Under the pieces are notes generated by a model that was not told the origin of the DNA, did no database searches, and worked only from the letters and a program-made list of their open reading frames with translations. From an uncultured Candidatus Saccharibacteria bacterium (lineage in GTDB: Bacteria; Patescibacteriota; Minisyncoccia; Phycocordibacterales; UBA9973): a stretch of DNA of 64,000 bases. The stretch is from positions 50,722 to 114,721 of the forward strand of contig CAZCXF010000001.1 in NCBI GenBank assembly GCA_964502615.1, written 5' to 3'. Positions 634 through 59,226 of this stretch are shown here, one piece after another (position 1 is the stretch's first letter; each line of letters opens with the position of its first letter). The position numbers were made by a program, and so were the translations under genes.

Positions 634-729
634 ATTGACATTATAACACCTATAAATATAATATCAACATATATTTAGTGACCGCTAAATACTTGTCAAA
701 ATAATATCGTGAGTATATAATGAAAACGT

Positions 730-1248
730 ATGAGGAGATTTTATATAACAGGAGTTTCTGGGACTGGTAAATCTAGCGTTATAGAGGAATTAAATAAAAA
801 AGGAATTTCTGCGATAGATATAGATAGTGTTCCGGATCTGTGCCATTGGATGAACAAAGAAACGAAAGAAAGAGCTAGCTGGCATCCAGGAATAGATGAT
901 GAATGGCACGAAGCACATGGTTGGATATGTGATAAAGATAGATTGATAGATTTGATGAATGAATCAAAAGACGTAGTAGTTGTTGCAGGTGTTGCTGCTA
1001 ATCAATACGAATTCCTAGATTTATTTGATTCAATTTTTATCCTTACTTGTAGCCCTGAAGTTTTTATTGAGCGTATTAATAAAAGAACAAACAATGACTA
1101 TGGTAAGCATGAAGTTGAACAAAAAAGAATTTTGAGTTGGCATGAGAGTTATAAAAAAGAGATGTTAGATCGAGGTGCTATACAAATAGATGCCGAAAAG
1201 CCACTCCATGATGTAGTAGATGAGATTATTAGAAATATTAAAAGTTAA
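730..1248 (+). CDS. P-loop NTPase / nucleotide-kinase-like (AAA_33-type)
   Basis: Walker A motif GVSGTGKSS at the N-terminus. The 172 aa size is typical of small nucleoside/nucleotide kinases. Confidence 0.55.
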   Translation: MRRFYITGVSGTGKSSVIEELNKKGISAIDIDSVPDLCHWMNKETKERASWHPGIDDEWHEAHGWICDKDRLIDLMNESKDVVVVAGVAANQYEFLDLFDSIFILTCSPEVFIERINKRTNNDYGKHEVEQKRILSWHESYKKEMLDRGAIQIDAEKPLHDVVDEIIRNIKS

Positions 1249-1262
1249 TTAAATAAAAATAT

Positions 1263-1529
1263 ATGATAGACCCACAAAAAGTAGATTTCAATCAGTTACC
1301 AAAGAAGTTCGCAGACGGTGCACTAGGTGCATATAGTAAGGGGGCAATAATGTTTGCTGTAACGTCCGGAAATACTTTGGATTCTTTTGCAACAACTCCA
1401 CAAGTAGCTAAAAGTATTGCAATATTCTTCAATCAGCAAATCGAAAAATATGAAAAAGACTATGGAGTTATAGATATGAATGTTCCGCCAATTCCTAGTC
1501 CAATGCAGTCGTCGGATTTAAATAAGTAA
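1263..1529 (+). CDS. hypothetical small protein
   Basis: 88-aa ORF between the kinase-like gene and dnaK. No recognisable motif. Confidence 0.3.
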
Positions 1530-1560
1530 ATTATTATTAATTAATTTTTTAAAAAATAAT

Positions 1561-3450
1561 ATGTCAAAAATAATAGGTATAGATTTAGGTACAACAAATA
1601 GTGCAGTAGCAATTATCGAAGGTGGTCAACCAAAGATCATTGAAAACGTTGAGGGTGCAAGAACAACACCATCAATAGTTGCCATTGGTAAAAATGGTGA
1701 TCGTTTGGTAGGTCTACTTGCGAAGCGTCAAGCTGTTACAAATCCACAAAATACAATCTATGGTATCAAGCGCTTCATGGGCCACATGTTTGAAGATCCT
1801 GAAATCCAGAAATCACAAAAAACAGCTCCATTTAAAATACAAAAAGGTAAAGATGGTGGAGTTGAAGTAAATATTGGTGACAAATGGAACCGTCCAGAAG
1901 AAATTTCTGCGATGATTCTTGCAAAAATAAAAGCAGATGTAGAAGCAAAACTAGGTGAGAAAATCACAGAGGCGATTATTACTGTACCTGCATATTTCAA
2001 TGATGCGCAGAGAAAAGCTACAAAAGATGCGGGTGCAATCGCAGGTCTTGATGTAAAACGTATTATCAATGAGCCGACAGCTGCAGCCCTTGCATATGGA
2101 TTCAATACTAAAAAAGATGAGAAGATTGTAGTGTATGACTTCGGAGGTGGAACCTTCGACGTATCAGTGCTTGAAGTTTCAAACGATGTTATCGAAGTTA
2201 AATCTACTGATGGTGACTCACACATGGGAGGTCGTGATATTGATCAGAAAATTATTTCTTGGATTGCAGATGAATTCAAGAAAAGTTCAGGTGTAGATAT
2301 TACTAAAGACCCACTTGCACTTCAGCGTCTAGATGAAGCAGCTGAAAAAGCAAAGATCGAGCTCTCAACTACCCCAGAAACTGAAATCAACATTCCATTT
2401 ATCACTTCAACAGACGCAGGTCCTCAGCACTTATTGATCAAAATGACTCGCGCAACACTTGAGAGTTTAGCTCAAGAATATATTGATCGTTCTATCGAGA
2501 TCACAAAGCGCGCAATGGAAGCATCACCATTTAAGATGAGTGAAATAAATGAAATCATAATGGTAGGAGGTCAAACTCGTATGCCTGCGATAGTTGAAGC
2601 AGTAAAGAAACTTTTCAATAAAGAACCAAACCGCTCAATCAATCCAGATGAAGTCGTAGCTCTTGGTGCAGCAGTACAAGCTGGAGTACTTCAAGGTGAT
2701 GTTAAGGATGTATTGCTTCTAGATGTTATTCCTCTATCTCTTGGAATTGAAACTCTTGGAGGAGTGGCTACAAAGCTTGTAGAGCGTAATACGACAATAC
2801 CTAGCTCAAAGAGCCAAGTATTCTCAACAGCTGCTGACAATCAGACATCTGTTGAAATCCATATTACTCAAGGTGAACGTCCAATGGCATCTGACAACAA
2901 ATCTCTTGGAAGATTTATCTTAGACGGAATTCCACCTGCTCCACGAGGTATGCCACAAATTGAAGTTACATTTGATGTGGATGCAAATGGAATCCTAAAT
3001 GTGAAAGCTAAAGATAAAGCGTCTGGTAAAGAGCAATCAATTCGTATCGAAGCATCATCTGGACTTACTGATGCTGATATAAAGAAAATGCAAGCAGATG
3101 CAGAAGCTCATGCTGAAGAAGATGCTAAAAAGAAAGCACTTGTAGATGAAAAAAATACTGCAGAAATGATGATATTCTCTGCAGAAAAATCTTTGAAAGA
3201 ATATGGCGACAAGATTGACGCATCACTTAAAACAAGTGTGGAAGAAAAGATTGCTGCTGTAAAAACAGCAAAAGATGGATCAGATATTGAAGCTATCAAA
3301 TCTGCACTCGAAGCTCTTACAACAGAAGTTTCAAAAATAGGTGAAGCTATGTCTAAACAAGGTGATGCAGGTGCAACAAACACAACAGCTGAACCACAAA
3401 GTGAAGAAATAAAGGATGCAGAAACAAAGGAGAATACAGATAATAAATAA
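1561..3450 (+). CDS. dnaK: molecular chaperone DnaK (Hsp70)
   Basis: [13 protein letters not shown] and [10 protein letters not shown] motifs. Full-length 629 aa Hsp70. Confidence 0.97.
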
Positions 3451-3470
3451 AATTATGATAATATAATTTT

Positions 3471-4556
3471 ATGGCAAAAGATTACTACGAAACATTAGGA
3501 GTATCAAAAAATGCTTCTAAAGATGAAATAAAAAAAGCCTTCCACAAGATGGCGCATAAATACCACCCAGATAAAAATAAGGGTGATGATTCGAAGTTCA
3601 AGGAAGTGAACCAAGCCTATCAAACACTCTCAGACGACCAAAAACGGGCTCAATACGATCGTTTTGGAGCAGATGGACCTCAGGGATTCAATCCTGGAGC
3701 GGGAGGTGGATTTGGAGGTTTCGATTTCTCAGGGTTCCAAAATGGAAACGGAGTAGAATTTGATATGGGAGATCTTGGAGATATATTTGGAGATTTCTTT
3801 GGAGGTGGAATGGGTCGCGGTGGAAGCAAGGCTCGCAGAGGAAGAGATATTTCAACAGAAATAGATCTATCATTTGAAGATTCAATCTTCGGAGTTACTC
3901 GCACCATTTTACTTTCTAAGCAATCCATCTGTGATATCTGTAAAGGTTCAGGTGGAAAACCTGGGACAAAGATGGACACTTGTAAGACTTGTAACGGCAA
4001 CGGACAAATTCGCGAAATGAAGCGCTCAATACTTGGAACATTTCAAACAACCAAAACTTGTGATACTTGTCATGGTCAAGGAAAAATTCCAAGTGAAAAA
4101 TGTACTGAGTGTAATGGCAAAGGTGTTCGCAATAAACAGGAAGAAATCGAACTCAAAATTCCAGCAGGTATAAATGCAGGTGAGATGCTCCGAATGACAG
4201 GCGCGGGTGAGGCTATTCAAGGAGGACAGGCTGGAGATCTATATATCAAAGTAAATGTTAAATCTCATCCATTGTTTAAGCGTGATGGGCTAAATCTAAA
4301 TCTAGATATAAAGATAAATCTAAGTGATGCATTACTTGGAATGAATTACAATCTAAAAACTCTTGAGGGCAACACTCTTGAAGTCAAAATCCCAGAGGGG
4401 ATAAATCATGGAGAATTGCTAAGAGTAAAAGGTAAGGGCGTACCATCTAGTCGTGGACGTGGAGATATTATTATCCGAGTACTTATCAAGATGCCAACCA
4501 AGCTTTCTAAAAAATCTAAAGAATTAATCGAGAAATTAAAACAAGAGGGAATATAA
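3471..4556 (+). CDS. dnaJ: co-chaperone DnaJ
   Basis: J-domain with HPD (KYHPDKN), a G/F-rich linker and four CxxCxGxG zinc-finger repeats. It follows dnaK. Confidence 0.95.
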   Translation: MAKDYYETLGVSKNASKDEIKKAFHKMAHKYHPDKNKGDDSKFKEVNQAYQTLSDDQKRAQYDRFGADGPQGFNPGAGGGFGGFDFSGFQNGNGVEFDMGDLGDIFGDFFGGGMGRGGSKARRGRDISTEIDLSFEDSIFGVTRTILLSKQSICDICKGSGGKPGTKMDTCKTCNGNGQIREMKRSILGTFQTTKTCDTCHGQGKIPSEKCTECNGKGVRNKQEEIELKIPAGINAGEMLRMTGAGEAIQGGQAGDLYIKVNVKSHPLFKRDGLNLNLDIKINLSDALLGMNYNLKTLEGNTLEVKIPEGINHGELLRVKGKGVPSSRGRGDIIIRVLIKMPTKLSKKSKELIEKLKQEGI

Positions 4557-4564
4557 GTTTCCAC

Positions 4565-4592
4565 GAAAACACCCTATCGGGTGTTTTCTGTT
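4565..4592 (+). terminator. hairpin after dnaJ (gaaaacaccc/gggtgttttc)
   Basis: Inverted repeat with a weak T-tract immediately after the dnaJ stop. Confidence 0.5.
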
Positions 4593-4603
4593 GATAAAGT
4601 ATT

Positions 4604-5257
4604 GTGTTATTTTCTGTAGGTGATACTATTCATCTTAAATTTCTAACCCATTATCTAATCATTAAATTCTTTGAAATGGCCAAAAAAATATGCCCCGATT
4701 CTATCAGATATCGTCTGGTAACTGATTTTACAAAAGAAAGCATTACAGACCATCTAATAACTTGGTCGGATGCAATACGTAGTAATAGTCAGCATATGAA
4801 ACCCGAAACACCTGAATCATTGCGTAATAACCTAATTTTCGCTGTACTTGCTTTCCATAATGGAATCTTAGTTGGCGCTGGTGGAATTATGTATCCACCT
4901 GAAAAAAAATTATTTTATAACAAACGCAAAGTTGTGGAGTTTCGTTCAGTGTATCATGATCCAAACTACAAGAAATGTGGAATTGCTACCGGCTTGGTTT
5001 TAAGAAGGCTAAAATTCGTTAAGGATAAAAAATTCTTTCCGATAACTCTGACACAGCAACCCGATATGGAACCTATACTTAGGAAAACTGGTTGGGTTTT
5101 AATAGAGGAGCTATTTAGCAAGAAATTAGTCCCTATAAAAAACGGATTGAGAGCCTGCGACTGCCATAGCAACAAAAGACTGCCTTTTGTAGGGGATAGG
5201 TGTTCAGTATGCCCAATGAGAAACAGATTCATATGGATCCATCCTGAATCACTCTAA
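4604..5257 (+). CDS. hypothetical protein, possibly GNAT-family acetyltransferase
   Basis: Central segment VVEFRSVYHDPNYKKCGIATGLVLRRL resembles GNAT motif A. An alternative start is at 4676 (MAKKICPD). The gene sits just upstream of the polyamine genes. Confidence 0.35.
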   Translation: MLFSVGDTIHLKFLTHYLIIKFFEMAKKICPDSIRYRLVTDFTKESITDHLITWSDAIRSNSQHMKPETPESLRNNLIFAVLAFHNGILVGAGGIMYPPEKKLFYNKRKVVEFRSVYHDPNYKKCGIATGLVLRRLKFVKDKKFFPITLTQQPDMEPILRKTGWVLIEELFSKKLVPIKNGLRACDCHSNKRLPFVGDRCSVCPMRNRFIWIHPESL

Positions 5258-5263
5258 GGTTTT

Positions 5264-5311
5264 GCCCAGACATTCACATATTTTATTATTGTGAATGTCT
5301 GGGCTTTTTTA
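5264..5311 (+). terminator. rho-independent terminator
   Basis: 15-bp perfect inverted repeat gcccagacattcaca/tgtgaatgtctgggc followed by a TTTTTT run. Confidence 0.75.
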
Positions 5312-5399
5312 TTAAAAGCTATTTACATATCTCTCTAATCTGCTATTATATTCATATTATTATTTTATTACAGACGCGAGATTCGTCTGGTAAAAAGAA

Positions 5400-6779
5400 A
5401 TGACTAAACGTTCTGTTGCTTCAAAGAAGCTCTGGAAAATTGGTGCCAAAGATTTTAATACTCAATATTTCGATTTCAATAAAGACGGTGACCTAATTAT
5501 TAAAGAAGGTCACAATATTTATAATGTACGATACTTAGCAGATAAGATGGGTACTTCTCTTGAAATACTAATGCCTTTTGTTATTGAAGAGAGACTTGAA
5601 GATCTACTAGATACAGCCCAAGCACTTTCCAAGAAAACTGGATACAAGGGTAAATTTATTTACCATTTTCCAATGAAGGTAAATCAGAATAAAGAGGCCA
5701 TAATGTCTATTGTTGGCGAAGGGGCTCACCTTGAGACTTCCTCATACAATGATCTTTATTTGATAAAAAAGATGCTAGAGCAAGAGTCTTTTAACCCAAA
5801 CATTCGCATACTTTGTAATGGTCCAAAAACTGATAAATACATGAATCTTATCGACGAGCTTCAACACAAAGGAACAAAAATTTTCCCAATTATTGAAGGT
5901 CCAAATGAGTTAAAGCTTCTTCAATATTCAAAATACGATGTAGGTATCCGCCTCGACATGCCAATCAAGGCAGACTCATACTGGAACAAACCAATCGATC
6001 GCTTCGGATTTTCTTCTAAAGAAATTCTAAATATGGGTAAATTTAAGAATCTAAAAATTCTTCATTACCATATTGGTTCTCAAATTGAGAAACTCTCTGA
6101 CGTGATTGTGCCTATAAAATATGCTCTTGATGTTTACTTTAAATTAAAAGAAAAAAATCCATCACTAGATACTCTTGATATTGGTGGAGGAATGCCAATA
6201 CCTTATGAGAGAACAAAAAGTTACCCAGTAGACAAACTTCTTGAAAAAATATTCGAAGTAGTTAAAAAAGAATCAGAGAAGCGTGAAATGCCACATCCAA
6301 ATATTGTCTGTGAATGGGGTCGCTACATTGCTGCACCGGCACAAATAAATATTTATAAAATCATAGATACAAAGAAAATTCATAGCAAAAAAGCTGATGC
6401 TAAGAAATGGTATGTGCTCGACGGTAGTTTTATGAATGATCTTTGTGATACTTGGGCTATAAAACAAAATTGGGCGATTGTTCCTGTAAACAGTAGTAAT
6501 GATAAAAATCTTACAGACGTTTGGCTTGCAGGATCAACTTGTGATTCAGACGATGTTTACAATGGGGTAAATGGTTCTATAACACTTCCTGATTATGAGA
6601 TGGATGAAGGTCATCCAATGTATATAGCAGTATTAGACACAGGAGCTTATGAAGACGCGCTGGTTATGCATCATTGCTTGCTTTCTTCGCCTCTTAAAAT
6701 AATCGTTGAGAACGGTCACGTTGTTATTGCTCGCAAAAGAGAAACCCCTGAAGAAGTTGGTAAAATGTTCGGTTGGTAA
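5400..6779 (+). CDS. PLP-dependent fold-III decarboxylase, SpeA-like arginine decarboxylase
   Basis: FPMKVNQ (PLP-lysine region, matches SpeA YPIKVNQ). A GGG loop and a C-terminal CDSDD-like segment typical of Orn/Arg/DAP decarboxylases. Neighbouring agmatinase supports an ADC assignment. Confidence 0.7.
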   Translation: MTKRSVASKKLWKIGAKDFNTQYFDFNKDGDLIIKEGHNIYNVRYLADKMGTSLEILMPFVIEERLEDLLDTAQALSKKTGYKGKFIYHFPMKVNQNKEAIMSIVGEGAHLETSSYNDLYLIKKMLEQESFNPNIRILCNGPKTDKYMNLIDELQHKGTKIFPIIEGPNELKLLQYSKYDVGIRLDMPIKADSYWNKPIDRFGFSSKEILNMGKFKNLKILHYHIGSQIEKLSDVIVPIKYALDVYFKLKEKNPSLDTLDIGGGMPIPYERTKSYPVDKLLEKIFEVVKKESEKREMPHPNIVCEWGRYIAAPAQINIYKIIDTKKIHSKKADAKKWYVLDGSFMNDLCDTWAIKQNWAIVPVNSSNDKNLTDVWLAGSTCDSDDVYNGVNGSITLPDYEMDEGHPMYIAVLDTGAYEDALVMHHCLLSSPLKIIVENGHVVIARKRETPEEVGKMFGW

Positions 6780-10090: not shown

Positions 10091-11761
10091 ATGTTATTCT
10101 GCCCATGGGAAAAAGCTTTATATTTTGTTTACTCTAGCAATATACCAACATTATTTTTCTATTCACATATACCTGCGATAATTATTGCTCTGATTTTAGG
10201 TATTTTCATACTGCGTAGTGGGCATAGATCACCCATAAGCATAGCCCTATTTTCTATTACAATATTATTTTCTATTTGGTGTATTTTTGACCTAATATTG
10301 TGGGCTACAAATGACCCAAGGAATGTAATGTTCTTTTGGTCGCTACAAGTTCTAATAGAACCATTGATCTATGCGACATGCATATATATCACTTTTTTAT
10401 TTATAAAAGGCAGAGATATGTTGTTCTTAGGGAAATTATTGATGAGTGTTTTACTACTACCTTTTATTATTTTTCTATCAAATAAGCTAAATCTACTAGG
10501 AGTAAACCTTTCTGATTGTACTGCTGTAGAAGGGCCAGTATCGTTATATTATGCTTATATTTATGAAATAATAAGCGTTATAGTTATCTTAGAAATATTT
10601 GTGAGTGCTTATACAAAAATTACAGATAGTTCTAGAAAAAAAGAAATCACTTACTTTATTATAGGTATGATTATGTTTTTGCTTGCTTTCTCTTGGGGCA
10701 ATTTAATTGGTAGTTTTACAGAGAACTGGACAATAGCTCAAGCAGGATTAATCGGTATGCCAATATTCTTTGCATTTCTTGCATACATTAGTGTAAAATT
10801 TAAAACTTTCAATCTAAAAATATTGGGAGCACAAGTTTTAGTTTTTGCTTTAGGATTTTTAGTGCTGTCCATGTCTTTTGTTAGAAGTATACAAAACATA
10901 AAGATAATAATATTCTTTACACTCGCTTTTGTTATTGCCCTGGGCTATCAACTTATTCGTGGAGTAAAGACTGAAGTAAAACAAAGAGAAAGGCTTGAAG
11001 TTCTAAGACTTAAGCTTGAAGAAACAAATATAAAATTAGAAGACGCAAACGATAAATTGAAAGATTTAGATAAATTGAAAACCGAATTCTTGTCTCTTGC
11101 TTCACACCAACTTCGCTCACCACTAACTGCTATAAAGGGATATACATCAATGGTTCTCGAGGGTGATTTCGGTGAACTTAATGATAAAGCAAAAGAAGCA
11201 ATTGAAAGAGTATTTCAATCAACCATGAATTTAACAAAAGTCGTGGAAGATCTTCTTAATGTTTCTAAAATTGAACAAGGTGGTATGAAATTCGTTATGG
11301 AAGATTTTAGTCTTGTTGAAATTGCAAGAGATATGTCTAAAGACTTATCAATAAGTGCAGAGAAAAAAGGATTGAAACTTACTTTTGAGGGAGATAAAGA
11401 TGAAGATTGTATGGTAAACGGAGACAAGGAGAAACTTCGCCAAGTTGTATTAAACCTTATTGATAACTCTATAAAATATACTAAAGAAGGTAGCGTGAAT
11501 GTTTCGGTTAAAAGAGTCAGTGATAAAGTTGTTTTCTCTGTAAAAGATACTGGTATGGGTATGACTCCCGAAATCAAGGCAACGTTATTCCAAAAATTCT
11601 CAAGAGGGGAAGGATCTCGAATGAATACTGGTGGTTCAGGACTAGGACTCTATCTTGCAAAAGAAATTATGGAAGCTCACAAAGGTACTATTGATGTTGA
11701 TTCAGAAGGTATGGGTAAAGGATCTAATTTCCATTTTGAATTAAATGCTATAAAAAAATAA
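10091..11761 (+). CDS. sensor histidine kinase with polytopic N-terminal membrane domain
   Basis: About 8 N-terminal TM helices, a coiled-coil linker, an H-box FLSLASHQLRSPLTAIKGY, and a HATPase_c G-box GGSGLGLYLAKEI. No response regulator is adjacent. Confidence 0.85.
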   Translation: MLFCPWEKALYFVYSSNIPTLFFYSHIPAIIIALILGIFILRSGHRSPISIALFSITILFSIWCIFDLILWATNDPRNVMFFWSLQVLIEPLIYATCIYITFLFIKGRDMLFLGKLLMSVLLLPFIIFLSNKLNLLGVNLSDCTAVEGPVSLYYAYIYEIISVIVILEIFVSAYTKITDSSRKKEITYFIIGMIMFLLAFSWGNLIGSFTENWTIAQAGLIGMPIFFAFLAYISVKFKTFNLKILGAQVLVFALGFLVLSMSFVRSIQNIKIIIFFTLAFVIALGYQLIRGVKTEVKQRERLEVLRLKLEETNIKLEDANDKLKDLDKLKTEFLSLASHQLRSPLTAIKGYTSMVLEGDFGELNDKAKEAIERVFQSTMNLTKVVEDLLNVSKIEQGGMKFVMEDFSLVEIARDMSKDLSISAEKKGLKLTFEGDKDEDCMVNGDKEKLRQVVLNLIDNSIKYTKEGSVNVSVKRVSDKVVFSVKDTGMGMTPEIKATLFQKFSRGEGSRMNTGGSGLGLYLAKEIMEAHKGTIDVDSEGMGKGSNFHFELNAIKK

Positions 11762-35765: not shown

Positions 35766-36755
35766 TTATATTTTCTGAATTTTGTAATCTTCCGGTGCTT
35801 TTTGCAAATATTCTTCAATTTTTTCAGAAGTCAGTAGTCCTTTTTGTGCACCTACAAATTGAGTTACAGACATTGCATTGATCGGAGCCCAAGTCAGTGC
35901 TTCAGCTAAAGTTTTTCCCATGGCTAAACATGCAGTTATTGTAGACTCATATGCATCTCCAGCTCCAGTTCGCTCAATAGGAGTGTGGGGGTAAACTGGC
36001 ATAAACCACATATCGCCATTTTCCTCACGAGCATATGCACCCTTTATACCATCTGTCATAACTATAGTCTTTGGACCAAGTGCGTGAAGCATGTCCATTA
36101 ATTTTTTAGGATCCATTTCCGAAGAAGAAAGAATGCGTTGTGCTTCTTCTAGGTTACAATAAAATATCTCAGTTTGAGCATAAATATCTTTTAATTTTTC
36201 AGTTCCAAGTTTTATTTGAAAAGTTCCAGGTTGAAAAGCAAGCTTAGTCTCAGGGTGAGCTTTAAGCCACTCTGCTATTTCATGATGAAAATCTTCAGTA
36301 TTTTCTCCAAGAGAAGATAAGTAAATCCATTTTGGAGGTTTAATATCTTTAAAATGTCTTTCAAATGGTGCGTGATTTACTAAGATAGTTCTCTCTGGCC
36401 CATACCAAAGTACATAATGATAATTTGTAGGGAGTTTTGGATCTGTTTCAATATAATCTAGACTTACATTATTATCAGCTAGTGCTTTCATGCACTCTTT
36501 TCCATAGCTATCATTACCAACCACACCAGAAAGAGCTGAATTTAGACCTAATCTACTTGCAGAAACAGCAGCATTGGCACTATTTCCAACGGCGTAAATT
36601 ATCTCATGAAATTCATAGGGTACTTTATCTCCAAAACGAACACAGAGTTTGCAGTGCTCTTGGTCAAGATCGCAAGTTGCCTCAGCATCCTTTATTCTTA
36701 TAAAATCATCGACAACCAAGTCGCCGATAGCTAAAAAATCAATTTGTTTATCCAT
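35766..36755 (-). CDS. PfkB-family carbohydrate kinase
   Basis: Ribokinase-like fold with a C-terminal GAGDAY anion hole. Confidence 0.8.
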   Translation of the reverse strand: MDKQIDFLAIGDLVVDDFIRIKDAEATCDLDQEHCKLCVRFGDKVPYEFHEIIYAVGNSANAAVSASRLGLNSALSGVVGNDSYGKECMKALADNNVSLDYIETDPKLPTNYHYVLWYGPERTILVNHAPFERHFKDIKPPKWIYLSSLGENTEDFHHEIAEWLKAHPETKLAFQPGTFQIKLGTEKLKDIYAQTEIFYCNLEEAQRILSSSEMDPKKLMDMLHALGPKTIVMTDGIKGAYAREENGDMWFMPVYPHTPIERTGAGDAYESTITACLAMGKTLAEALTWAPINAMSVTQFVGAQKGLLTSEKIEEYLQKAPEDYKIQKI

Positions 36756-36794
36756 ACTACGTGGATTATATCACACTATGATATAATCCTAAAT

Positions 36795-37661
36795 ATGAAA
36801 ACACTGCGGGAAATCATAAAAGAGGCATCAGATAAAAGAGTTGCTGTTGGGCATTTTAATATCTCAAATTTAGAAGGCTTACATGGTATATATCAGGCGG
36901 CAAAAAAACTTGGACTTCCAGTTATTATTGGTGTATCTGAAGGAGAAGAAAAATTTGTTGGACGCGAAGAAGTGGTAGCTCTAATACGCACACTAAGAGA
37001 AAGAGATAATTATCCAATATATTTAAATGCTGATCACCATTCATCATTTGAAAGTGTAAAAGCTTGTATCGATGCCGGTTTTGATATGGCAATAATAGAT
37101 TGTGCAAAATTACCTTTTGAAGACAATGTAAAAATAACAAGAGAATGCGTAGAATATGCAAGAAAAATTACAAAAGAAACAGGGCGAGATATTTTAATAG
37201 AAGCTGAACTTGGGTTCATTGGTTCTGGTTCTGATATTAAAGATACAATACCAGAAGGCGCTGGAATATTAACTACACCAGAAGATGCAAAAAAATATGT
37301 TGAACAAACTGGTATAGATATGTTTGCGCCTTCAGTTGGATCTATACATGGGCTCATTAAAAGTGGTAAACCACATATTGATACAGACAGGGTCAGAGAA
37401 ATAAAAAATGCAGTAGGTATTCCGCTTGTGCTTCACGGTGGATCTGGTCTTCGCGATGAGGATTTTACAAATGCAATTTCTGCTGGAATTTCAGTAATTC
37501 ATATAAATTCAGAGCTTAGACTTGCATATGAGCAAGCTGTTGGAAAATTCATAAAGGAAAATCCAGAAGAGATTGTTCCTGCAAAAATTTTAGCAGGTGC
37601 GGTAGAGGCAATAGAGCAGATAGTAGAGAATAGATTAAAACTTTTTAACAACATTAAATAA
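36795..37661 (+). CDS. fba: class II fructose/tagatose-bisphosphate aldolase
   Basis: HFNISNLEG, DHH and LHGGSG motifs. Confidence 0.9.
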   Translation: MKTLREIIKEASDKRVAVGHFNISNLEGLHGIYQAAKKLGLPVIIGVSEGEEKFVGREEVVALIRTLRERDNYPIYLNADHHSSFESVKACIDAGFDMAIIDCAKLPFEDNVKITRECVEYARKITKETGRDILIEAELGFIGSGSDIKDTIPEGAGILTTPEDAKKYVEQTGIDMFAPSVGSIHGLIKSGKPHIDTDRVREIKNAVGIPLVLHGGSGLRDEDFTNAISAGISVIHINSELRLAYEQAVGKFIKENPEEIVPAKILAGAVEAIEQIVENRLKLFNNIK

Positions 37662-52429: not shown

Positions 52430-52993
52430 ATGGATCCAATAAATCAAAAAAGTGGCGGTTCAAATAAAATGCTTTACATTATTATCGGTATTCTAGTCGT
52501 TATTATCATTGCCTTCTTAATGAGAGGATCATTTGGATCACGTAGTGTGAATATAAACGGCATGAATTTAGATGTAGATAAAAAGATAGATGGTTCTACA
52601 ACTATAAAAAGTGATTATGGCACAACAACTGTAAATCAAAACAAATTACCAGATAATTGGCCAACAGACGTTCCTGCATACGCAAGTGCAACAATCACAA
52701 CAGCAGGATCTACAAACGCTCAAGCCGGGGTAGAAGGTATGGAAGTAATGTTCAATACTAAAGATAGTGCACAATCTGTTCTTAATTTTTATAAATCTGG
52801 ACTAACATCTTCAGGTTGGGCTTCTCTATATCCTGGTAAACCAATCACAGGAACTCAAGTCGGTGCAAACATAAGCCTAATGGCAAAAAAGGACAAGAGA
52901 ACATTAACAGTAAGTATAAGTGACATGGGTATTGAAGGATCAAGAGTAGTGCTAATTGTAGCCTCAATGCCAACTGTCAAAACTGGATTATAA
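52430..52993 (+). CDS. hypothetical secreted/membrane-anchored protein
   Basis: N-terminal TM followed by a Thr/Ser-rich soluble domain. Confidence 0.45.
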   Translation: MDPINQKSGGSNKMLYIIIGILVVIIIAFLMRGSFGSRSVNINGMNLDVDKKIDGSTTIKSDYGTTTVNQNKLPDNWPTDVPAYASATITTAGSTNAQAGVEGMEVMFNTKDSAQSVLNFYKSGLTSSGWASLYPGKPITGTQVGANISLMAKKDKRTLTVSISDMGIEGSRVVLIVASMPTVKTGL

Positions 52994-53000
52994 TTTTAAA

Positions 53001-53038
53001 TAAGAAGCCCCTTATATATAAGGGGCTTCTTATTTTCT
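53001..53038 (+). terminator. rho-independent terminator aagaagcccctta...taaggggcttctt
   Basis: 13-bp perfect stem followed by a T-run. Confidence 0.75.
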
Positions 53039-53058
53039 AGTTATCCACAGATTTTTTC

Positions 53059-53087
53059 TTGACTGTGAACGCTCGTTCACATATACT
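53059..53087 (+). promoter_or_regulatory. sigma70-type promoter TTGACT-N17-TATACT with LexA (Cheo-type) box GAACGCTCGTTC in the spacer
   Basis: -35 TTGACT at 53059-53064 and -10 TATACT at 53082-53087 with a 17-nt spacer. GAAC-N4-GTTC at 53067-53078 sits within the palindrome tgtgaacgctcgttcaca. Confidence 0.65.
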
Positions 53088-53126
53088 ATTTATATAAGTA
53101 ATTAGTAGTAATTTATTAGTAAATAT

Positions 53127-53333
53127 ATGAATAGAGAACAATACATAAAGATAATAGAGAGAGAGCTACAAGCTCTAAATAAGAGGATCGATATGAAGAT
53201 TCTCCAAGGTGTCGAATACAAGCGTGAGGCTCGTGACCACAAAATACTACAAAAGAAAATGATGCAACACTCACGCAAGGGTTTCTTCAATAAATTTCTA
53301 ACCGCAGTGCCTCAATTTATGATATTCTTTTAA
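53127..53333 (+). CDS. small basic protein (68 aa) between the SOS promoter and lexA
   Basis: The ORF occupies the entire gap between the LexA-box promoter and lexA. It has a helical, charged N-terminus and a hydrophobic C-terminal tail. Confidence 0.35.
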   Translation: MNREQYIKIIERELQALNKRIDMKILQGVEYKREARDHKILQKKMMQHSRKGFFNKFLTAVPQFMIFF

Positions 53334-53336
53334 TAT

Positions 53337-53903
53337 ATGCAAAACGATTACAAAGCAAAACTCCAATCTTTCTATGAGCGTGAGAAACGTATGCCTACAT
53401 ACACAGAGATGATGAAACTTTTTGGATTCAAATCCAAAAATGCTGTCGCTCGACTTGTAGATAAATTCATTGATGCTGGTATCGCAACAAAAGACCATCT
53501 TGGTAGACTTATCCCAAGTGGCTCTTTTGATAATATACCTCTCCTTGGTTCTGTTACTGCAGGTTTTCCTGTGGATGTTGAAGAAGAAATGAAAGAAGTA
53601 GTAAATCTAGATAATTACTTAGTAGGCAAGAAAGAAAATACTTTCATGCTTGAAGTGGATGGCAATTCCATGATCGATGCTCATATAGCAGATGGTGACA
53701 TGGTGCTTGTTGAAAAAACAGATAGAGCTCAAGACGGGGACATAGTTATCGCGAATGTAGATGGAGAATTCACTATGAAATATTTTAAAAAAGATGGTAA
53801 CAAAGTTTGGTTAGAACCAGCTAATAAAGACTTCAAGCCAATACATCCTAAACAATATCTACACATCAATGCAGTTGTGAAAGCTGTCATACGAAAGTAT
53901 TAA
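53337..53903 (+). CDS. lexA: LexA repressor (S24 peptidase)
   Basis: N-terminal wHTH, the cleavage-site region, Ser nucleophile GNSM and Lys in TMKYF. Confidence 0.9.
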   Translation: MQNDYKAKLQSFYEREKRMPTYTEMMKLFGFKSKNAVARLVDKFIDAGIATKDHLGRLIPSGSFDNIPLLGSVTAGFPVDVEEEMKEVVNLDNYLVGKKENTFMLEVDGNSMIDAHIADGDMVLVEKTDRAQDGDIVIANVDGEFTMKYFKKDGNKVWLEPANKDFKPIHPKQYLHINAVVKAVIRKY

Positions 53904-53915
53904 GAATTTTGAGTT

Positions 53916-54779
53916 ATGGAAGAAATCGAATATAATAAAATTATGCCAGTCTATATTAAACAACAAAAGCCAAGCAAAATTTTAGCTGATGTTGAACTTA
54001 AACCTTACTTTAAAGACAAAGAATTTGTTTTGTATAATGGGGATTCATTACTACTTTTAGAACAATTACCAGAAAATTCTGTAGATATGATATTCGCAGA
54101 TCCACCCTATAACCTTTCTAATGGTGGTTTTACTGTACATGCTGGGCGTATGGTTAGTGTAAATAAAGGTATTTGGGACATAAGTAATGGATTTGAAAAT
54201 GATTATGCTTTCCATTATAAGTGGCTTGAAGCTTGTAAAAGAGTATTAAAACCAGGAGGTACATTGTGGGTTAGTGGAACATATCATTCGATTTATCAGT
54301 GTGGACATGCGCTCCAGGCACTTAATTATCACATATTAAACGATATTTCATGGTTTAAACCTAATGCATCACCAAATTTAAGTTGCCGATTTTTTACAGC
54401 AAGTCACGAAACAATAATTTGGGCTAGAAAAGAAAAGAAAGCAAAACATACTTTTAATTACAAAGAAATGAAAGAGGGTAATTGGCCAGAGGATAAACTA
54501 AAAAAACCAGGTTTGCAAATGAGATCTGTTTGGTCAATAGGAACTCCAAAACCTAATGAAAAAAAATTTGGTAAACACCCTACACAAAAACCAATAGACC
54601 TACTTAAGAGAATTATTCTTGCAAGTACTAATAAGGGTGATGTGATTATCGATCCATTCACAGGAAGCTCAACTACAGGTATAGTAGCTGCCATGCATGG
54701 AAGGAAATTCATTGGGATAGATACTGATAAGAAATTCCTTGATCTCTCTATTAAAAGATTTAAGAACTTAAATAAATAA
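53916..54779 (+). CDS. beta-class N6-adenine/N4-cytosine DNA methyltransferase
   Basis: Motif IV DPPY (FADPPYN) lies N-terminal to motif I (IIDPFTGSSTTG), the beta-class order. ParB-like/N6_N4_Mtase family. Confidence 0.88.
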   Translation: MEEIEYNKIMPVYIKQQKPSKILADVELKPYFKDKEFVLYNGDSLLLLEQLPENSVDMIFADPPYNLSNGGFTVHAGRMVSVNKGIWDISNGFENDYAFHYKWLEACKRVLKPGGTLWVSGTYHSIYQCGHALQALNYHILNDISWFKPNASPNLSCRFFTASHETIIWARKEKKAKHTFNYKEMKEGNWPEDKLKKPGLQMRSVWSIGTPKPNEKKFGKHPTQKPIDLLKRIILASTNKGDVIIDPFTGSSTTGIVAAMHGRKFIGIDTDKKFLDLSIKRFKNLNK

Positions 54780-54780
54780 A

Positions 54781-55305
54781 ATGAAAGAAAAAGGTATAGG
54801 TGGTGCAAATACTCAAACTGGTATAAAATTTGAAAGAAAAATTAATCTTCTTAGATTTATATCGAGTTTAAAAGGGTATAAAGTTAAGAAAAATAAAATA
54901 TTTTACGAAAATAAAGAAGTTGCTAGAAGTTACGCAAAAAATAGTTTATATAATTACTTAAAAGAAAGTGGTGTAGATTACACAAAAGTACTTTCAAAAA
55001 AACTACTACCTGATGAAGCTATATATGTCATTGTTAATAACACATTGTTTGTAATTGAAATGAAATTTCAAAAAGTTGCTGGTTCTGTGGATGAAAAATT
55101 GCAAACTTGCGATTTCAAGAAAAAACAATATCAAAAACTTATGTCACAAATTAATATAGATGTGCATTATATTTACATACTAAGTGACTGGTTTAAAAAA
55201 CCTCAATATAAAGATACCTTGGACTATATTATTTCTGTTGGGTGTCAATATTACTTTGAATATCTACCATTAAAACAAATAGGTATGCCCGTACCAAAAA
55301 AATAA
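54781..55305 (+). CDS. candidate type II restriction endonuclease (PD-ExK-like)
   Basis: The start abuts the MTase stop by 1 nt. A possible PD...ExK catalytic motif occurs (LPDEAIYVI...VIEMKFQK). Confidence 0.4.
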   Translation: MKEKGIGGANTQTGIKFERKINLLRFISSLKGYKVKKNKIFYENKEVARSYAKNSLYNYLKESGVDYTKVLSKKLLPDEAIYVIVNNTLFVIEMKFQKVAGSVDEKLQTCDFKKKQYQKLMSQINIDVHYIYILSDWFKKPQYKDTLDYIISVGCQYYFEYLPLKQIGMPVPKK

Positions 55306-55333
55306 TTATATAATTTTTGTTAAATTAATTTAC

Positions 55334-55609
55334 ATGAAAAAAGTTAAGGAACTCAGTTTATTTACAGAGAGAGTTTTAAATATAGTTTCTAGTATTAAAA
55401 AAGGGGAGACTATGACCTATAAAGAAGTCGCTACTCGTGCAGGTAGCCCAGGGGCAGCTCGTGCTGTTGGATCTATAATGAAAGCCAATTACAGGCCTAA
55501 TGTCCCATGTCATAGGGTTATTCGCAGTGACGGTGTAATAGGACAGTACAATCGTGGTGGACAAAACGAAAAATACAGAAAGTTGAAAAGAGAAGGTGCT
55601 ATTTTGTAG
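55334..55609 (+). CDS. ogt: minimal O6-methylguanine-DNA methyltransferase (Ogt/MGMT DNA-binding domain only)
   Basis: Active-site PCHRV and HTH TYKEVATRAG. The N-terminal domain is absent. Confidence 0.85.
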   Translation: MKKVKELSLFTERVLNIVSSIKKGETMTYKEVATRAGSPGAARAVGSIMKANYRPNVPCHRVIRSDGVIGQYNRGGQNEKYRKLKREGAIL

Positions 55610-55633
55610 CAAAATGTTTATAATGTATTTGTT

Positions 55634-56182
55634 ATGAAAACAAAATTAATTTCAATCATTATAGGCCTAGTTTTAGTAGCTGGTGTTGGGACACTAGTAT
55701 ACAAAACAAAGCAACCAGTTGTATTGCCTTCTGAAGATATTACAAATAGTGGATCTACTCTAAACAACAATACAAATGACACACAAAATCAATTACCAGT
55801 AAAAAGTACTACCCCAACAACATCTGTTAAAAAATCTTGGTTTGATGACGACGATGATGACGATGAAGAAGATGGTGGTGGTACTGTTAGCACTCCAGTA
55901 GTAACCCCAAAATCTACTACAACTACCACTACAACTACAACAAGCGGTGGTATAACTCTTGCTACTATTGCAAAGCATAACAGTAGATCTAGTTGTTGGT
56001 CAGCCGTAAATGGTGGTGTATATGACCTTACAAGTTGGATTCCAAACCACCCAGGAGGTGAGCAAGCAATACTTTCCATGTGTGGAGTAGATGGCTCAAG
56101 TGGATACAATGGTCAACATGGAAGTAGTAGTAAGCCAGCTAGAATGCTTGCAGGATTTAAAATAGGTACACTTGCAAAATAA
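55634..56182 (+). CDS. membrane-anchored secreted protein with poly-Asp and poly-Thr linkers and C-terminal cytochrome b5-like heme-binding domain
   Basis: N-terminal TM, DDDDDDDEED and TTTTTTTTT low-complexity runs, then HNSRSSCWSAVNGGVYDLTSWIPNHPGG (cyt b5 HPGG motif) and a second His in GQHGSS. Confidence 0.65.
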   Translation: MKTKLISIIIGLVLVAGVGTLVYKTKQPVVLPSEDITNSGSTLNNNTNDTQNQLPVKSTTPTTSVKKSWFDDDDDDDEEDGGGTVSTPVVTPKSTTTTTTTTTSGGITLATIAKHNSRSSCWSAVNGGVYDLTSWIPNHPGGEQAILSMCGVDGSSGYNGQHGSSSKPARMLAGFKIGTLAK

Positions 56183-56579
56183 TATGAAAATAAATCTAAC
56201 AAGACAAGAATTCGGTCTCCACTTACTACGACTAGGACTCGCAGGAGTATTCCTTTGGTTTGGATTCTCTCAATTGATGGATAGTCTACGATGGGTAAGC
56301 ATAGTCCCAGATTGGGCTGTAAGCTTCCTACATCTTCCTCCAGCGATGATTGTCATGGCAAATGGAACATTTGAAGTGGTTATGGCAACACTTCTTGCTA
56401 TGGGCTTTTTTGTACGAATTACTTCATTTGTACTAGGACTCCACTTGCTAGTCATAGCTTTTGATTTCGGCTTCACAGCTACAGGCATCCGTGACTTGGG
56501 TCTTGTCATAGCATCTCTTGCGCTTTCATTTATATTTACTAAACCAAGCACAGAAATAAAAACAATATCTTCTATCTAA
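56172..56579 (+). CDS. DoxX-family membrane protein
   Basis: 4 TM with LLRLGLAGVFLWFGFSQL. Overlaps the preceding gene by 11 nt. Confidence 0.65.
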   Translation: MQNNMKINLTRQEFGLHLLRLGLAGVFLWFGFSQLMDSLRWVSIVPDWAVSFLHLPPAMIVMANGTFEVVMATLLAMGFFVRITSFVLGLHLLVIAFDFGFTATGIRDLGLVIASLALSFIFTKPSTEIKTISSI

Positions 56580-56581
56580 AC

Positions 56582-56809
56582 ATGTTTGTTCATGTGAAAG
56601 TAAGTGCTGGTAGTAAAAAAGAAGAACTCAATCAAAAGAGCGATGACCATTTTGAAGTATCAGTTCGTGAGAAAGCTGAGCGTAATCTTGCAAACAATCG
56701 CGTCATAGAACTCATAGCCAACCACTTTAAACTTCCCAAATCTCACATCCGTATAATCAACGGTCATCATAGCCCCACAAAACTTTTATCTATAAAAGAT
56801 GCCGAGTAA
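56582..56809 (+). CDS. DUF167/YggU (UPF0235)-family protein
   Basis: VHVKVSAGSKKEEL...FEVSVRE...NRVIELIANHFKLPKSHIRIINGHHSPTKLLSI follows the YggU pattern. Confidence 0.6.
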   Translation: MFVHVKVSAGSKKEELNQKSDDHFEVSVREKAERNLANNRVIELIANHFKLPKSHIRIINGHHSPTKLLSIKDAE

Positions 56810-57080
56810 AGAATACAAATTTAAAGCAAAAGTCTGGAAGTGGCCAGGGGATGGACCATGGCATTTTGTTACTTTGGACAAAAAGATGTCAGAGGAGATA
56901 AGAAATAAATACGGCAAGGGTATGATAAAAATTCGCACAACGGTAGGCAAGACTACTTGGGACAATGCTCTTTTTCCACACAAACTTTCTCAATCCTACC
57001 TTCTTGCAATCAAAAAAATAGTCCGCAAAAATGAAGGTATTTTTGAAGGTGATGAGATAAAAATTAGTTTTAAAATATAG
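56799..57080 (+). CDS. DUF1905-like protein
   Basis: WKWPGDGPWHFVTL matches the DUF1905 core. Overlaps the preceding gene by 11 nt. Confidence 0.45.
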   Translation: MPSKEYKFKAKVWKWPGDGPWHFVTLDKKMSEEIRNKYGKGMIKIRTTVGKTTWDNALFPHKLSQSYLLAIKKIVRKNEGIFEGDEIKISFKI

Positions 57081-57127
57081 ATTTGATTTTTCTTCATTTT
57101 ATGGTAAAGTAGCAAAAAAAATTACAC

Positions 57128-57742
57128 ATGAAAAAGAAAGCACAGACTCCTAAGAAGAGTGAACTTACTGCAACACTGCAGTTCCGAAACAAAGTAGATG
57201 GATTAAAGTACAAAGCCATACCGCTTGATGATGTAACCGCTGATATCGTGGAAAAGCGTCGTGTAAGGCCCAAACGAGCCAGCATAGACAACGTTCTGCA
57301 AAATCAATACCAGTACAAATCAAAAACGAAATACTCCAGCAAGATCCTGACCGCAACCAAGGATGGCGTACTCAATGCAACCGGCACCGCCTGGGTCCAT
57401 GTTGTAAATGAAAGAGACGAACTGGTGTGGACCAGGGAGTTTTACAAAAAGGATCTGAAGGGTGTTTTAAAACGTACAGCCATCTATGGCCAGGTTGCAA
57501 AGAACATTGCTGACAACCGGCCAAGCGGAGCCAAACTCGTGGCATTATCAGAAACTGAATATGCCTGGGTGAGCAAGAATGGTAAAAAATACACTGAATT
57601 CAATCTCAACGATTATTTGTACGGATTAACTGATGCCGAAAAAGCATTCGTGCAGAAGCACGAATACGCCCGTGACTACTACCTCATCAACAGCGAAGGT
57701 AAAGTGGTGAACCGTCAGCGGGAAATTCAGAAAAAATGGTAA
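57128..57742 (+). CDS. hypothetical protein encoded by compositionally atypical (higher-GC) DNA
   Basis: 204 aa with no recognisable motif. Local GC is clearly higher (~45%) than the flanks, with ctg/ccg/gcc/acc-type codons. Confidence 0.5.
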   Translation: MKKKAQTPKKSELTATLQFRNKVDGLKYKAIPLDDVTADIVEKRRVRPKRASIDNVLQNQYQYKSKTKYSSKILTATKDGVLNATGTAWVHVVNERDELVWTREFYKKDLKGVLKRTAIYGQVAKNIADNRPSGAKLVALSETEYAWVSKNGKKYTEFNLNDYLYGLTDAEKAFVQKHEYARDYYLINSEGKVVNRQREIQKKW

Positions 57743-57782
57743 TATGATCTTTCAATAAATGGTTGGTTTAGTTTTGGACAAC

Positions 57783-57811
57783 GCCCGGAGTAACATCCGG
57801 GCTATTTTTTT
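57783..57811 (+). terminator. GC-rich rho-independent terminator gcccgga...tccgggc + T8
   Basis: 7-bp GC stem followed by TATTTTTTT. Confidence 0.75.
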
Positions 57812-59027: not shown

Positions 59028-59195
59028 ATGTTTGACAATAGTATTGATTTGTATCATAAAATTAAACTGTGGATAACTTACTATCTTTAATCCTAAATAG
59101 GAGTACTATGTGTAATGAGTCTCGTAAGTATGACGGATGCGATCGTAAGAGAGTATCTTCAATAGCAATATTGATAGCACTTGTGAGTCTCATAA

Positions 59196-59226
59196 AGAAA
59201 ACCCCGTCAGGGGCTTTTTTTATGCC
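59196..59226 (+). terminator. plus-strand terminator aaaacccc-gtca-ggggcttttttt
   Basis: Short GC stem followed by T7. Confidence 0.5.

Follow-up and report, generated by a model that had tools for sequence, protein, structure and literature searches.

A conserved LexA-box promoter heads a miniprotein–lexA pair, followed by neighbours that are probably promoted separately, at a Paceibacteria lexA locus

Results

Layout of the lexA control region

We analysed a 64-kb stretch of DNA (the window; coordinates are those of the whole window) from contig CAZCXF010000001.1 of an uncultured Candidatus Saccharibacteria bacterium (assembly GCA_964502615.1), in which a promoter with a LexA box in its spacer stands before ten plus-strand genes, the first encoding a 68 amino acid (aa) miniprotein and the second LexA, which represses the SOS response that DNA damage elicits. 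A sequence-only reading of the same DNA had raised the possibility that the whole string forms one SOS-controlled transcription unit; the comparisons below point instead to a promoter conserved before the miniprotein gene and lexA, followed by genes that are likely a mosaic with promoters of their own and not a designed SOS operon. The control region and the first two genes comprise the following features:

53003-53032, plus strand: hairpin terminator of the upstream gene (52430-52993), marking where the lexA control region begins
53040-53050, plus strand: 11-mer GTTATCCACAG with the perfect DnaA-box 9-mer TTATCCACA (53041-53049), ending 9 nucleotides (nt) upstream of the -35 hexamer
53059-53064, plus strand: -35 hexamer TTGACT of the lexA-operon promoter
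53064-53081, plus strand: LexA operator, an 18-bp perfect palindrome TGTGAACGCTCGTTCACA (TGTGAAC-GCTC-GTTCACA) that fills the promoter spacer
53082-53087, plus strand: -10 hexamer TATACT
53088-53126, plus strand: AT-rich stretch of 39 nt from the -10 box to the miniprotein ATG, with the repeat AGTAATT-AGT-AGTAATT
53127-53333, plus strand: miniprotein gene, 68 aa, predicted basic helical hairpin with a Phe/Arg/Lys-rich C-terminal tail
53337-53903, plus strand: lexA, 188 aa, with an Ala75-Gly76 cleavage site and a Ser111/Lys148 dyad

The lexA promoter and its operator are conserved among relatives

The operator core GAACGCTCGTTC (GAAC-N4-GTTC, 53067-53078) lies within the 17-nt spacer between the two hexamers. 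This pattern occurs twice in the 64 kb against 0.57 occurrences expected, the second copy (37206) falling inside an open-reading frame (ORF, 36744-37661), and the stricter lineage form GAACGNNCGTTC occurs only once in the window. By its LexA homologues the window belongs to the Paceibacteria/Nomurabacteria group of the Patescibacteria. For comparison we used 80 species-representative Paceibacteria loci chosen via LexA alignment (compared loci, mostly the lexA loci of relatives, are given L-numbers below), 74 of which had enough upstream DNA for the promoter to be compared, and as genomic background for box counts the ~992 kb made up of the relatives' loci and the window. All 74 species share a single promoter order, GTTATCCACAG, the -35 hexamer, a GT-GAACGNNCGTTC-AC spacer and TATACT or TATAAT; the -35 hexamer is TTGACT in 29 and TTGACA in 19 (TTGAC followed by T or A in 48 of the 74) and TTGCAT in 10. 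The LexA box lies at the same position, exact in 70 species and with one mismatch in 4, its palindrome reaching 16-18 bp, and 70 of the 84 GAAC-N4-GTTC matches in the 992 kb lie at lexA promoters. The near-consensus promoter with a perfect LexA box in its spacer, as the sequence-only reading described it, is borne out, its coordinates matching and its architecture being kept in 74 of 74 species. If the box were a chance palindrome in an AT-rich promoter, with LexA inactive here, the loose pattern could be expected to turn up by shuffling, and it does occur at least twice in 13 of 100 window shuffles; set against the fixed position of the box, the extension of the palindrome among relatives and the concentration of matches at lexA promoters, this explanation is very improbable and is effectively refuted by conservation.

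One relative, L058, carries three more LexA boxes inside promoter spacers within 6 kb upstream of lexA (640-6500); the genes behind them are of RhuM/Fic-like, secreted-peptidase and Y-family-polymerase type, and in the latter two a -10 box lies 6 nt before the ATG. Because these extra boxes are built alike, the operator within the spacer appears to be the general SOS design of the lineage. Downstream of the -10 box the leader proper would span ~33 nt if the start site lies near 53094, an unusual length within a mostly leaderless lineage (see below), and its repeat is partly conserved among relatives, there as AGTTAATTAATAGTAATTA.

LexA has an S24 peptidase domain (PF00717, E = 9e-31) and passes the equivalog model TIGR00498 (140.7 bits against a cut-off of 110.95), and A75, G76, S111 and K148 are invariant across 20 homologues. 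By analogy with the established LexA mechanism, a LexA dimer on TGTGAAC-N4-GTTCACA, between -35 and -10, would exclude RNA polymerase because the palindrome occupies the spacer; RecA filaments formed after DNA damage would trigger LexA self-cleavage at Ala75-Gly76 by Ser111/Lys148, upon which the miniprotein-lexA operon would be derepressed, later resetting itself. We infer that 53040-53087 is the autoregulated SOS promoter of this two-gene operon, which forms one part of the three-unit model discussed below.

Among lexA promoters, autoregulated ones with a GAAC-N4-GTTC box of the Gram-positive (Cheo) type are a known kind, and the SOS network of Patescibacteria was reportedly studied by Sanchez-Osuna, Barbe and Erill in 2017 (ref. 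9 in PMC8565304). The promoter described here resembles the known ones in its palindromic GAAC-N4-GTTC operator overlapping the promoter, its S24 self-cleavage LexA, its predicted autoregulation and the further box before a Y-family polymerase (in L058). It differs from them in that a conserved miniprotein gene comes first and lexA second, in the extension of the operator to TGTGAACGNNCGTTCACA, in the invariant DnaA-type box upstream of -35, and in the predicted leadered operon mRNA of an otherwise largely leaderless lineage.

A miniprotein gene precedes every examined lexA

The miniprotein gene lies directly upstream of lexA in all 78 loci with upstream DNA for this comparison, mostly at gaps of 1-15 nt (tblastn). 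A 64-72 aa miniprotein followed by lexA is the invariant conserved unit, and among the window's proteins only these two are universal in the relatives (tblastn, 80 loci). Across 67 aligned orthologues the residues N18, I21, D22, K24, I25, Y31, E34 and H38 are invariant. Clustering leaves at least 893 groups of the family at the 90% identity level and 308 at the 50% level, all of them stand-alone proteins of ~60-90 aa, annotated as hypothetical and without a Pfam domain; the exhaustive HMMER search that gave the 308 clusters found no informative fusions, and searches of Pfam, NCBIfam and PHROGs gave no match that would name the miniprotein. An AlphaFold model (pLDDT 82.5) predicts with confidence a helical hairpin with helices at residues 3-27 and 32-49, and a low-confidence tail; for the miniprotein a sequence-profile search of the PDB returned zero matches at E <=10 and Foldseek returned generic helical hairpins alone (E > 2). 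The tail contains 20% Phe and 16% Arg/Lys with nearly no acidic residues, and because its longest uncharged run is 9 residues it is not predicted to be a transmembrane helix; the whole miniprotein has a net charge of +5 to +13.

Two kinds of small SOS protein offer themselves for comparison. YneA, SosA, ChiZ and DivS are lexA-adjacent SOS cell-division inhibitors, divergent from lexA, with one transmembrane segment and an extracellular C-terminus that often carries LysM, and they have little or no sequence similarity to each other (PMC6851548). Like these and SidA, the miniprotein is a small lineage-specific protein whose gene adjoins lexA under a LexA box, but this gene is co-directional and upstream of lexA whereas those genes are divergent, and its product is a strongly basic hairpin with a Phe/Arg/Lys tail, in which we found neither of the hallmarks of the division inhibitors, a transmembrane segment or LysM, nor any Pfam match. 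The other kind is represented by gp7 of phage GIL01, a small accessory protein that binds LexA (PMC4551915), to which DdrR of Acinetobacter, a corepressor in a LexA-lacking system, is conceptually related (PMC7273328). The miniprotein shares with gp7 a small size and genetic linkage to a LexA-type repressor, but gp7 is phage-encoded and outside the host lexA operon whereas the miniprotein gene lies within it, and neither the PDB profile search nor Foldseek found gp7-like sequence or fold similarity.

A viral contig, L167 (IMGVR_UViG_3300045921_000069), encodes a tail-less 55-aa homologue of the miniprotein (3001-3168; hhalign 98.2%, E = 3e-14), which overlaps the point where a 211-aa membrane protein begins that has a lytic-transglycosylase-like motif, and, ~1 kb away (4130-4366), a 78-aa protein consisting of the LexA DNA-binding domain alone (PF01726, 34.8 bits). 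The two together echo GIL01 gp7 and gp6 (PMC4551915, PMC6182141). Searches for LexA and DnaA boxes near the viral homologue found nothing beyond chance. For the miniprotein of the lexA operon, roles as a LexA partner, as a membrane or division effector, or in some other form of nucleic-acid binding appear roughly equally likely.

A DnaA-type box upstream of the -35 hexamer

Of the 74 related lexA promoters, 69 carry the DnaA-box 9-mer exactly and 5 with a single mismatch, and 70 of its 87 occurrences in the 992 kb lie at lexA promoters. Most often (60 loci) 8-10 nt separate GTTATCCACAG from the -35 hexamer, with 3 loci at 1 nt, one at 11 nt and 5 at 19 nt; because these spacing classes (1, ~9 and 19 nt) differ by roughly one helical turn, the box suits a protein that must face RNA polymerase. 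The invariant GTTATCCACAG is, on this pattern of conservation, a predicted second protein-binding site about one helical turn upstream of -35, and the protein that binds it is most likely DnaA. At promoters with a TTATCCACA box, for example those of dnaA, nrdAB and B. subtilis sda, DnaA is a transcription factor; the lexA promoter is like these in its perfect, promoter-proximal 9-mer, present here as the 11-mer GTTATCCACAG, whose flanks we take to match those of E. coli R1. In the literature that could be searched, no paper mentions a DnaA box together with a lexA promoter, and both the miniprotein family and the DnaA-type box at every examined lexA promoter look new. Paired DnaA boxes in L079 were considered as a possible origin within the lineage and rejected, since they lie inside a GIY-YIG gene.

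The co-directional string and its base rate

Behind lexA the string continues with a restriction-modification (R-M) cassette and further genes up to a terminator:

53904-55333, plus strand: inserted R-M cassette, ~1430 bp, 25-30% G+C
53909-53936, plus strand: predicted cassette promoter TTGAGT-N16-TATAAT, ending 6 nt before ATG 53943
53943-54779, plus strand: N6-adenine-type methyltransferase, CcrM/HinfI-like beta class (longest ORF from 53916)
54781-55305, plus strand: putative PD-(D/E)XK endonuclease, 174 aa, with a PD...EMK motif
55334-55609, plus strand: ogt, a one-domain O6-alkylguanine-DNA alkyltransferase, 91 aa, PCHR active site
55619-55624, plus strand: TATAAT nine nt before the cytb5 ATG, predicted internal promoter
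55634-56182, plus strand: cytochrome b5-like protein (cytb5), membrane-anchored
56184-56579, plus strand: DoxX-family membrane protein, start ATG 56184
56582-56809, plus strand: DUF167 (YggU-like) protein
56799-57080, plus strand: DUF1905 protein
57128-57742, plus strand: 204-aa protein without a family, higher G+C (~45%)
57783-57811, plus strand: G+C-rich intrinsic terminator closing the string

Pfam and NCBIfam identify LexA, N6_N4 methyltransferase, Ogt, Cyt-b5, DoxX, DUF167 and DUF1905 in the string, and give no family match for its 68-aa and 204-aa proteins. The ten genes follow the promoter with gaps of 3, 12, 1, 28, 24, 1, 2, -11 and 47 nt, and a consensus scan found no plus-strand terminator-like hairpin from the promoter to 57783-57802 except the LexA palindrome itself. 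Both results agree with the sequence-only reading, which had counted nine or ten co-directional genes with gaps or overlaps of 0-47 nt and placed the first hairpin terminator at 57783; it had also noted that recA, uvrA and an error-prone polymerase are not in the window, and a six-frame translation of the window likewise revealed no RecA/UvrA Walker motifs and no DinB homologue. Such packing is not confined to the string. On the plus strand lie 68 of the window's 86 ORF calls, with runs of 15, 17 and 15 genes, and the co-directional gaps of the window have a median of 14 nt, 49 of 63 being 50 nt or shorter. A ten-gene co-directional string with tiny gaps is the usual state of this genome and, because tight co-directional packing is the norm, its layout is no evidence for an operon.

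Leaderless promoters in short gaps

Among 1064 ORF-called genes of the window and its relatives, 162 have a -10-like hexamer that ends exactly 6 nt short of the ATG, where other offsets give a background of ~15; 81 of these are exact TATAAT (background ~3), and a shoulder appears at 7-9 nt. A Shine-Dalgarno (SD) core was found in only 36 of the 1064. Because -10 boxes are enriched 6 nt before the ATG and SD cores are rare, the geometry is that of leaderless mRNAs, which implies mostly leaderless or SD-independent initiation in the Paceibacteria examined; a -10 box at this distance is the prevailing promoter signature of the lineage. The miniprotein is an exception, its ATG standing 39 nt past the -10 box. 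Genes close behind lexA show the same geometry: among the 28 helicase genes whose start lies 14-27 nt past lexA, 25 carry a -10 box at 5-9 nt ahead of the ATG, and 24 of the 25 show it in the extended form TGnTAtAAT, so that gaps of 14-20 nt regularly hold complete promoters. The gene after the terminator of the string has TGcTACAAT 6 nt before its ATG.

The R-M cassette is an insertion

A junction alignment with the closest species, L007 and L008, shows that the cassette (53904-55333) replaces a single base between lexA and ogt; from this alignment and the low G+C content the R-M pair is shown to be an insertion between the two genes, and it is absent from 80 of 80 species-representative loci. 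The methyltransferase is well matched (PF01555, E = 1e-58; ADPPYN motif; CcrM match, E = 4e-55), the 174-aa protein has a sub-threshold PDDEXK_11 match (19.3 bits against a cut-off of 23.7), and a search of the PDB found no relative of this nuclease candidate. Relatives of the nuclease with 61-80% identity are present in at least 80 metagenome loci, nearly always with the methylase upstream and with varying flanking genes.

Within the cassette, codon 10 of the methylase is an in-frame ATG (53943) that is preceded at six nt by a TATAAT (53931-53936), and TTGAGT lies 16 nt upstream of this hexamer. Of 53 cassette copies elsewhere, 29 have a -10 box, mostly TGn-extended, 6-9 nt before the methylase ATG that aligns with residues 10-16 or 27 of the window's protein. 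Because these copies share the geometry in other contexts, the cassette is predicted to carry its own leaderless promoter, and 53943 is most likely the methylase start. The cassette is like CcrM/HinfI-like type II R-M cassettes in its CcrM-like methyltransferase, its methylase-then-nuclease order with a 1-nt gap, and its occurrence as a mobile pair in many contexts; it differs in its predicted leaderless promoter and in a nuclease for which no characterised relative was found. Members of this cassette family are found immediately behind lexA in L122/L124 (3159-4525; LexA 68% identical; gap GAAATGATATAATAGACAT) and one gene further on in L089 (3178-4552), a recurrence which suggests that the position downstream of lexA is an insertion-tolerant hotspot.

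Variable neighbours further downstream

Ogt matches PF01035 (E = 7e-27) and TIGR00589 (74.9 bits against a cut-off of 46.4), with the motif VPCHRV and without the N-terminal domain. Its gene follows lexA after one base (TAA-T-ATG), without a -10 box, in L007 and L008, so the alkyltransferase is truly coupled to lexA in these two species; in L010 and L014 the ogt start and the stop of the helicase gene overlap. The cytb5-doxX pair was found among the 80 loci only in L008 and L014, besides the window, and on this distribution is a putative indel cassette; in L014 a convergent gene parts cytb5 from ogt and from lexA. The TATAAT before cytb5 is kept in both L008 and L014, the latter with unrelated upstream context. 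The 204-aa gene had been regarded as foreign in the sequence-only reading; this does not hold for the lineage, because homologues with 47-49% identity stand at the same position, after DUF1905, in L010 and L013. L002, a near-identical contig with an identical LexA, departs from the window inside DUF1905 (L002 ~4714, window ~57026); where the window has the 204-aa gene, L002 goes on with PMT_2-like genes on the minus strand. The difference could reflect either variation between strains or a chimeric assembly.

The gene after lexA varies between species, being an SF1B RecD2/Pif1-like helicase in ~32, a minus-strand gene in 11 and many others elsewhere. The helicase (~560 aa; for example L010 4740-6410 and L014 7582-9252) is not behind lexA in the window, L007 or L008, and no helicase homologue was found in the window; a 556-aa ORF (10091-11761) was considered as the missing helicase of the lexA locus and rejected as an unrelated protein. 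An ancestral operon of miniprotein, lexA, helicase and ogt was also considered, and was revised in view of the 25 of 28 helicase genes with a -10 box of their own.

A conserved element downstream of the string

Outside the string, the window contains at 59031-59225 (plus strand) a ~150-nt conserved, non-coding-looking element, found also in L007, L008, L010 and L020. Its features are a TTGACA promoter, behind it a DnaA-type box in reverse orientation (CTGTGGATAAC, 59067-59077) close to where transcription is predicted to start, then ~130 nearly invariant nt that form a predicted long stem enclosing two hairpins, and an intrinsic terminator (59199-59222). Rfam has no family for the element at ~59040-59225. 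The element overlaps a 49-aa ORF that has an AGGAG site and is called as a gene elsewhere, yet the third codon positions of this ORF are invariant, which argues for an RNA.

Discussion

We consider it probable, chiefly from the predicted promoters and their conservation, that the string is transcribed as three units. The first would be miniprotein-lexA, from the LexA-repressed promoter; the second the R-M cassette from its own leaderless promoter, with ogt probably on the same transcript; and the third cytb5-doxX-DUF167-DUF1905, perhaps with the 204-aa gene, from its own -10 box. Basal expression of the second and third units is predicted to be LexA-independent, although transcripts started at the LexA promoter after damage may read through and contribute to it, since there is no terminator between the units. 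Several points weigh against this arrangement and against our view of the promoter. All promoters are sequence predictions, and a generic promoter scan is barely above background (30 found, 24 in shuffles); the R-M promoter of the window has no TGn extension of the kind common to most cassette copies, and no convincing -35 accompanies the -10 box of cytb5; no -10 signal of their own is seen for ogt, DUF167, DUF1905 or the 204-aa gene, whose units are assigned by inference; with no terminator from lexA to 57783, a long SOS-inducible read-through transcript is entirely possible; and the binding of DnaA to GTTATCCACAG is taken solely from identity to the canonical box.

A single SOS operon of ten genes, with the LexA-box promoter as the main one and R-M, Ogt, cytochrome b5/DoxX and the DUFs as true members of the regulon, is what the sequence-only reading had in mind when it described an unusual SOS regulon. 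It would fit the lack of a plus-strand terminator between 53087 and 57783, gaps that never exceed 47 nt, the 1-nt lexA-ogt junction without a -10 box in L007 and L008, and the cassette family behind lexA in L122/L124 and one gene further on in L089. We nevertheless hold it to be improbable: gene order behind lexA is not conserved, only miniprotein-lexA being constant behind the box; leaderless promoters are predicted before the methylase and cytb5, with -10 boxes ahead of ATG 53943 and ATG 55634; a convergent gene stands between ogt and cytb5 in L014; and gaps as short as these regularly contain promoters in a lineage whose genomic norm is tight co-directional packing. Internal promoters, here predicted in silico, are among the findings that the sequence-only reading had itself held incompatible with a single unit, and gene order behind the box varies as well. 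Of the coupling it proposed between the repressor and its neighbours, the part concerning ogt stands, as this gene truly adjoins lexA in L007 and L008, whereas R-M and cytb5-doxX are predicted to be promoted separately.

A nested operon lies between the two, with internal promoters providing basal expression and read-through from the LexA promoter making ogt damage-inducible, and R-M and the distal block less strongly so. The missing terminator behind lexA speaks for it, as do the absence of a -10 box at leaderless distance from ogt, the direct coupling of ogt to lexA before the insertion, and the helicase genes after lexA in 28 species, which likewise have their own promoter and no terminator between them and lexA; but internal cistrons on a read-through RNA may be translated poorly where SD sites are few and mRNAs mostly leaderless, and we put this arrangement at slightly under an even chance. 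Measurable SOS read-through into ogt or R-M, which would be compatible with the three-unit model, has in our estimate almost as good a prospect of occurring as of not occurring.

Under the three-unit model, the string deflates to an ordinary autoregulated lexA promoter plus separately promoted neighbours. Gap-size operon calls are unreliable in these reduced genomes, because gaps of 14-20 nt can hold full promoters. The fixed, perfect DnaA box at the lexA promoter suggests a direct link between replication initiation and the damage response. A further-reaching and rather doubtful proposal is that the Paceibacteria lexA operon joins an unreported miniprotein, acting either as a gp7-like modulator of LexA operator binding or cleavage or as an SOS effector such as a division or membrane checkpoint, to a promoter that integrates DnaA through an invariant, high-affinity box; if true, the SOS set-point would depend on the replication initiator's state. 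Because this unannotated miniprotein precedes every examined lexA of the clade, it makes a strong candidate for a piece of the SOS machinery that is missing in organisms of minimal gene content.

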